64,000 bases of DNA from Escherichia phage vB_EcoM_PTE-Eco15: sequence record PQ352352.2; one strand, given 5' to 3'. Made by a program: the position numbers and the translations under genes. The notes beneath the pieces were generated by a model, which was not told the DNA's origin, did no database searches, and saw nothing but the letters and a program-made list of their open reading frames with translations. Below, in pieces: positions 39,477 through 39,866 of the stretch (its first letter is position 1; each line of letters starts with the position of its first letter).

Positions 39477-39866
39477 ATGGAACTTATTACATAATTATTT
39501 GACGGCGCTTCGGCGCCGGTTGTTAACTTAAATCCTAAGCATAAAATACCACAAATTTTTGCTATTCAAGCCGGCGAAGAAAGCGTGCTTCCTGGATTTA
39601 GATTTTGTACATACACCTCTGGCGGTGATACGAATAAAAACGTTAAGCCGGGCGATAAAATGATGCATATCGTAATGATAGGTGTTAATGAGAAATTATC
39701 ACTGGTTAAGCTTAGAAACTTGGGTGGAAATCCAATTGGCGTCATTAATGCTGTTTTTGATACTGCTCTTCAAACAATGAAGCAGTATAAAATTGACGCA
39801 TGCCTATTCCGCGTACTAAAAAGTTCAAAATGTAGTTTACAAGTCCCTCGTGTTGTGTTACAGTAG
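39477..39866 (+). pseudogene. alt N-terminal paralogue (alt.-1-like) with in-frame TAA at codon 6
   Basis: Nucleotide similarity to the alt 5' end (ATGGAACTTATTACA | TAA, then ...FRFCTYTSGGDT.., KMMHIV.., QTMKQYKIDAC..); track ORF 39585-39866 begins at GTG downstream of the stop. Confidence 0.55.

Follow-up and report, generated by a model that had tools for sequence, protein, structure and literature searches.

The segment at 39477-39866 of the window (the whole 64,000-nt stretch of DNA analysed here, from a T4-like phage of the genus Tequatrovirus) is very probably a pseudogene, the non-functional remnant of a second, tandem gene for an Alt-family ADP-ribosyltransferase. It lies directly after alt and before alt.-3 and gene 54, which matches the position of the alt.-1/alt.-2-type remnant of phage T4. 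The remnant as such is already known, as alt.-1/alt.-2 in T4 and as a putative pseudogene in phage fPS-2. The features of the locus are as follows:

35724-37187, plus strand: DNA ligase, gene 30 (open reading frame)
37184-37372, plus strand: 62-aa 'phage blade' open reading frame (Pfam PF24647 'Phage blade protein', E = 1.9e-29)
37425-39473, plus strand: alt, intact, coding for the capsid-packaged ADP-ribosyltransferase of 682 aa (PF03496 at E = 1.4e-34)
39477-39866, plus strand: remnant of the second alt paralogue, between alt and alt.-3
39477-39824, plus strand: 5' stump of 348 nt, homologous to codons 1-116 of the T2-type full-length second Alt paralogue
39477-39494, plus strand: mini-ORF ATG GAA CTT ATT ACA TAA (MELIT and a stop), which retains the original start and Shine-Dalgarno (SD) sequence (AAGGA) of the second alt paralogue
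39492-39494, plus strand: ochre codon TAA in place of GAA (Glu-6), seen in the alignment; stop context UAAU
39503-39518, plus strand: C(UUCG)G tetraloop hairpin CGGCGC-UUCG-GCGCCG, folded with a 6-bp GC stem; encodes D-G-A-S-A-P in the intact paralogues
39816-39824, plus strand: deletion junction, where one copy of the 9-nt direct repeat CTAAAAAGT is left, located by comparison with T2
39825-39866, plus strand: out-of-frame tail, made up of 11 nt from the 3' end of the ancestral gene (TTCAAAATGTAG) and former intergenic DNA, reading ...SSKCSLQVPRVVLQ and a stop
39836-39864, plus strand: early-type promoter-like site for alt.-3, TTTACA-17 nt-TACAGT (putative function)
39843-39890, plus strand: strong predicted hairpin burying the alt.-3 SD sequence GAGG (39884-39887); dG -24.3 kcal/mol, z -4.1, 0 of 200 shuffles
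39896-40186, plus strand: alt.-3, 96 aa, DUF5498, first intact gene after the remnant (open reading frame and Pfam)

The alt gene at 37425-39473 is the functional paralogue adjoining the remnant. The second ATG of its reading frame (37425) has the better SD sequence (-6.4 kcal/mol), and the N-terminus encoded from it, MELITE, corresponds to the propeptide of 6 residues that the gp21 protease removes by cleavage at ITE-6, with Glu-6 as the P1 residue (PMC5694885). The 62-aa open reading frame between the ligase gene and alt shows a 4-nt overlap with the ligase stop codon. A T4 late-promoter consensus, TATAAATA, is present at 37394-37401, between the UUCG hairpin that follows this open reading frame and the alt start; judged from its sequence, it would fit with Alt, a capsid-packaged protein, being expressed late. 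Beyond alt.-3 there are minus-strand open reading frames annotated as gp54, gp48 and gp29 in related records. The nearest database matches for the region were phages EC128 and fPS-2 (99.2-99.8% identity); fPS-2 is 99.2% identical to the window across the region and carries the same TAA allele.

The stop codon of alt (TAA, 39471-39473) is followed three nt later by an ATG (39477-39479). The initial annotation, which had been made from the letters of the window alone, proposed that the sequence after alt repeats the 5' end of alt, with TAA at codon 6 where alt has GAA, and that the homology then continues in frame. The alignments bear this out: the repeat is seen at ATG 39477, the stop lies at 39492-39494 and similarity to Alt extends to about codon 116. 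The SD duplex at the 39477 start (-5.2 kcal/mol) is within the range of real genes. The frame of codon 6 reopens after the TAA, with no further stop until TAG 39864-39866, and reads LFDGASAPVVNLNPKHKIPQIF...FRFCTYTSGGDT...KMMHIV...QTMKQYKIDAC. When codon 6 is taken as Glu, the conceptual product shows 61% identity to Alt residues 1-117 with E = 1e-48; the similarity is therefore far beyond chance. The 129-aa conceptual product had no Pfam domain match at E <= 0.01. Thus the stump has the N-terminal homology and the propeptide MELITE expected of an Alt-family member, yet codon 6 is a stop; it ends at codon 116 and contains no ART catalytic domain (Arg, S-T-S and E-x-E motifs); and the frame from the conserved start is interrupted by the TAA at 39492-39494. 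It resembles T4 Alt in the 61% amino acid identity over residues 1-117, the MELITE propeptide with its Glu-6 cleavage site (PMC5694885) included, but belongs to a separate paralogue, has no enzyme domain and is unable to make the P1 residue of the propeptide.

Relatives were compared by database search over about 485-490 Tequatrovirus records, which split into two classes. In ∼395 of 485 records the match to the remnant extended only as far as window position 39824, while the short form was found in 90 of 485 records, T4 and the window among them. Four records of the long class were read (T2, CM8 and two IMG/VR contigs), and all contained a full-length 685-aa open reading frame starting at exactly the 39477-equivalent ATG. 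This second paralogue (AYD82791 in T2, YP_010076001 in CM8) has GAA at codon 6. The T2 protein matches PF03496 (E = 8e-20), the domain lying at residues ∼374-620 in both Alt and T2 Alt2; it retains the Arg, S-T-S and E-x-E catalytic motifs, as read by eye from the alignment, and is 41% identical to Alt overall. The remnant and the T2-type gene occupy the same place after alt, with identical start, SD sequence and hairpin, and the stump shows ∼97% nucleotide identity to the first 116 codons of the second alt gene of T2 and CM8. The difference is that the T2-type gene is intact, with GAA and PF03496, whereas the window lacks codons 117-678.

The junction indicates how these codons were lost. The intact T2 gene contains CTAAAAAGT twice, once at codons 114-116 and once 7 codons ahead of the stop (3857-3865 and 5556-5564 of the T2 locus, L005), while the window holds it once. 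The lengths compared (2121 versus 422 nt) give a deletion of 1,699 bp, and with it the entire ADP-ribosyltransferase domain is gone. As the reading frame is not preserved across the deletion, the stump closes with a nonsense tail extending into DNA that was once intergenic. This same junction was found in 90 of 485 records. Haplotype blocks of the stumps recur in different intact alleles, a pattern that fits both a single deletion spread by recombination and repeated deletions at the same repeat.

The T4 record lists the same locus as alt.-1/alt.-2 (NP_049810, NP_049809), 'a duplication of the first part of gene alt', and a comparative paper likewise regards alt.-1/alt.-2 as a partial duplication of alt (PMC1524935). 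In a literature search for alt.-1/alt.-2 this was the one relevant paper, and its remark is confined to the paralogy. The fPS-2 record labels its open reading frame 'similar to N-terminal of Alt, putative pseudogene'. Alignment with T4 alt.-1/alt.-2 and relatives, the check proposed at the outset, placed the remnant at the same locus and revealed relatives in which codon 6 is GAA, some with an intact gene and others with a stump. T4 and the window have in common the location between alt and alt.-3, the 1,699-bp junction, the hairpin and 95.5% nucleotide identity. They differ in that T4 has GAA and a 1-nt deletion in an A-run, resulting in two overlapping small open reading frames, while the window has TAA and no frameshift. 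The annotation of the T4 locus, the pseudogene label in fPS-2 and the GAA of the relatives all agree with the early suggestion of a decaying, alt.-1-like paralogue.

The TAA at codon 6 corresponds to a single G-to-T change. A scan of IMG/VR with a 41-mer left degenerate at the first base of codon 6 returned only four contigs, all with GAA; this sample was too small for population counts, which were therefore taken from the identity bands of short-query megablast searches against the phage collection. The exact 61-mer with TAA was present in 44 of 489 phage records. Roughly one in two members of the truncated class thus has the ochre codon as its allelic state. A sequencing error or a laboratory mutation of the isolate might be suspected from a single-base difference from T4 and T2, but the identical TAA 61-mer in 44 records, from phages of different hosts and countries, refutes this explanation, and its probability is close to nil. 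Every TAA record read in sequence (seven phages plus the window) was a deletion stump, and none of the listed TAA records had a full-length CDS called at the 39477-equivalent ATG. That the stop falls on Glu-6, the P1 residue, is regarded as a coincidence because GAA is one base change from a stop.

The sequences compared numbered 19, four intact and 15 stumps. The stumps carried these lesions, with all combinations represented:

No lesion (uninterrupted 128-aa open reading frame): AV121, FL23
TAA only: the window, fPS-2, fPS-90, SG1
-1 frameshift (A-run) only: T4, G8, e11/2, Pu-Krd-SF4, one IMG/VR contig
TAA and frameshift: SP21535, T-01, pSe_SNUABM_01
TAA, frameshift and 7-nt insertion: HY03

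Over the 345 nt shared by all, variants present in any intact copy comprised 21 synonymous changes and 1 missense, and those private to stumps 10 synonymous, 9 missense and 1 nonsense. The excess of missense changes in stumps relative to intact genes was significant (Fisher p = 0.001, with four intact and 15 truncated copies, and some 'private' variants may occur in unsampled intact genes). The stumps are under relaxed constraint; the sample is small and the direction clear.

These observations suggest the following history. The ancestor, in the form kept in T2 and most Tequatroviruses, would have had alt followed three nt later by a 685-aa paralogue with the same capsid-targeting MELITE. Illegitimate recombination between the two CTAAAAAGT copies would have caused the loss of 1,699 bp, removing the catalytic domain and shifting the frame. 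The deletion would have left the start, the ribosome-binding site and 116 codons, and spared the alt.-3 promoter and hairpin. In the lineage of the window, a G-to-T change probably then turned codon 6 into an ochre; in that of T4, the loss of one A from the A-run would have produced the alt.-1/alt.-2 split.

The stop is followed by a hairpin, and the pair had been described at first as superficially similar to the recoding sites of T-even phages, with nothing else in support. The hairpin, given then as GGCGC-TTCG-GCGCC nine nt past the stop, does begin at 39504, and the claim that it takes the place of a stretch of alt is also upheld by the alignment, in which alt has GAAGATACTACTCTTCCGATTACA at this position and the hairpin side is 3 nt shorter. 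If recoding were programmed, the UAA would be read through or bypassed with the aid of the UUCG hairpin, as in T4 gene 60, giving a 129-aa protein similar to the N-terminus of Alt. In favour of this, a stable C(UUCG)G hairpin does follow the stop at a distance of 8-9 nt, and the next 124 codons form an open frame with homology to Alt. Nevertheless, the hairpin sequence GGCGCTTCGGCGCC was identical in all four intact genes, all with GAA, in which it encodes G-A-S-A-P, and in all 19 sequences, intact and truncated, with or without the stop. Since intact GAA genes have the same hairpin, it is ancestral coding sequence unlinked to the stop, which it predates, and the stop and the structure are not conserved together. 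TAA was seen only in deletion stumps, and four of the eight TAA sequences read were also frameshifted downstream, which would defeat read-through. The downstream frame lacks the catalytic domain and any Pfam domain and ends in the out-of-frame tail, so that there is no sign of a functional product. Homology resumes right after the stop and leaves no gap to be bypassed. The stop context is UAAU, the most efficient for termination in E. coli. Finally, a decoding agent was found neither in the 64-kb window, which contains no tRNA genes, nor in the tRNA cluster of the TAA-allele phage fPS-2, which consists of the eight standard T4 tRNAs and includes no ochre suppressor (no UUA anticodon). The likeness to T4 gene 60 bypass and read-through sites is therefore superficial, a stop codon near a UUCG-loop hairpin, and differs from them in the lack of a conserved stop, of a coding gap and of a functional downstream product. 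Programmed recoding is considered extremely improbable; the arrangement of stop plus hairpin is a coincidence.

The other possible source of protein is an internal start, as the initial annotation had suggested. Initiation at GTG 39585 (93 aa) or at ATG 39660/39663 (67-68 aa) would yield a truncated protein, assumed to be functional. Several records call CDSs there, their annotators implicitly assuming such a product; the reading frame is open from 39585 to 39866, and T4 alt.-2 begins at the equivalent ATG. The SD pairing of these starts is weak, however (-2.4 to -3.6 kcal/mol, against -5.2 to -6.9 in neighbouring real genes). In T4 this start overlaps the alt.-1 stop, which makes coupling possible, whereas the nearest terminating ribosome in the window would be ∼165 nt upstream. 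Missense changes pile up in the stumps, and the product would have neither the capsid-targeting propeptide nor the enzyme domain. In a T4 omics study, alt.-1 and alt.-2 RNA was detected (class 'middle'), while the Alt.-1 and Alt.-2 proteins were not; these are small proteins, and the T4 allele is other than that of the window (PMC9697503, Table S2). The suggestion of expression from an internal start thus found no support, and a functional product of this kind is judged very unlikely. Because the SD pairing is weak and there is no upstream open reading frame for coupling, the CDS calls on internal open reading frames of the stump were deemed unreliable; they are probably spurious, annotation artefacts. 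Many GenBank and RefSeq records name these 67-93-aa internal open reading frames 'RNA polymerase-ADP-ribosyltransferase' or 'NAD(+)--arginine ADP-ribosyltransferase', although they lack the transferase domain.

For the pseudogene, ribosomes would most likely load at the kept start and synthesize the pentapeptide MELIT before terminating at UAAU. What remains of the stump would then be untranslated RNA on read-through transcripts coming from alt, and probably yields no product. In AV121 and FL23 the stump frame is uninterrupted (128 aa), so that a transient function of the N-terminal fragment is conceivable.

A stump that is dead as a protein could still be kept for roles in RNA, an explanation compatible with the pseudogene reading. 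The hairpin might act as a 3' barrier or stabilizer of alt mRNA, and the 3' 60 nt might serve alt.-3. The position of the hairpin, 30 nt past the alt stop, is in line with this, as is the fact that most other C(UUCG)G hairpins of the window are intergenic. Such hairpins were reportedly described in T4 mRNAs by Tuerk and colleagues in 1988, and that of the remnant shares their loop and closing base pair and likewise has a GC stem. The window holds ten perfect C(UUCG)G hairpins with stems of >= 4 bp (4-8 bp), compared to 0.26 expected from shuffles, at 3198-3213, 32573-32592, 33453-33468, 37370-37389, 39503-39518, 48727-48742, 50683-50694, 52349-52364, 53029-53046 and 55965-55984. They lie mostly between open reading frames and several are A/U-flanked or precede a T run, as in the classic T4 intergenic class. 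While the others are mostly intergenic, the hairpin of the remnant lies in ancestrally coding sequence and has no U tract: the stem at 39503-39518 is followed by the tail GGTTGTTAAC, and the scan for intrinsic terminators was negative there. Its fold in a 101-nt context was unremarkable (z = -1.0), and a search of 37000-40400 against Rfam (E <= 1) found nothing in the remnant and two sub-threshold chance matches further downstream. In T2-type phages the hairpin is within a translated gene, where ribosomes would unfold it. The first ∼100 nt, hairpin included, were almost invariant across the 19 sequences; this could reflect an RNA-level constraint, although recent common ancestry and recombination explain it equally well.

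At the other end, the right-hand breakpoint of the deletion spares the promoter-like site and the hairpin of alt.-3, which also speaks for a role in RNA. The -10 element of this site is TACAGT in the window, TATAAT in T2 and TATAGT in the other stumps read, the C at the third position being found in the window alone among the sequences compared. The same position is annotated 'promoter' in the record of phage Lutter. The hairpin that buries the alt.-3 SD sequence has a counterpart in T2 (z -4.8), its pairing being retained despite base changes. The -10 element sits in the hairpin loop; transcripts from this promoter would therefore be without the left arm and would have the SD sequence exposed, while read-through transcripts are predicted to mask it. 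An SD-masking hairpin with a promoter in its loop is a layout known for several T4 genes. The T4 omics data class both alt.-3 RNA and protein as early, and the Alt.-3 protein was detected (PMC9697503, Table S2). None of this provides a rationale for the middle ∼300 nt of the stump, and retention of the stump for RNA roles seems rather unlikely. Two further possibilities, even taken together, have very little weight. In one, the stump would work as a 5-codon minigene (MELIT) with the hairpin defining or stabilizing the 3' end of alt mRNA, or tuning read-through translation into the alt.-3 control region; in the other, the 128-aa stump of AV121 and FL23 would be a functional, capsid-targeted fragment and the TAA allele its natural null.

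Variation at the locus extends beyond the stump. In phage KAW1E185 there is a single, chimeric alt gene (2609-4666 of its locus, L019), in which T2-type Alt sequence gives way, at alignment column ∼600, to the C-terminus of the second paralogue. As read from its sequence, this chimera points to another deletion event, in which the two tandem paralogues recombined with each other. The first alt gene is itself a mosaic: between T2 Alt (697 aa; 1421-3514 of the T2 locus) and the window/T4-type Alt (37425-39473), residues 1-250 are 98-100% identical, residues ∼250-600, which include the catalytic domain, 27-65%, and those beyond 77-96%. Alt variants have been reported to differ in the host defences that they counter (bioRxiv 10.1101/2025.11.20.689424).

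The remnant having been recorded before, the additions made here are modest: an origin of the deletion in microhomology, and a catalogue of allelic states. The tandem alt locus is fluid, occurring as two copies, as one copy plus a stump or as a chimeric single copy, which fits variation in anti-defence functions (bioRxiv 10.1101/2025.11.20.689424). The deletion at a 9-bp microhomology would account for the absence from T4 of a second injected ADP-ribosyltransferase, which most related phages still have.
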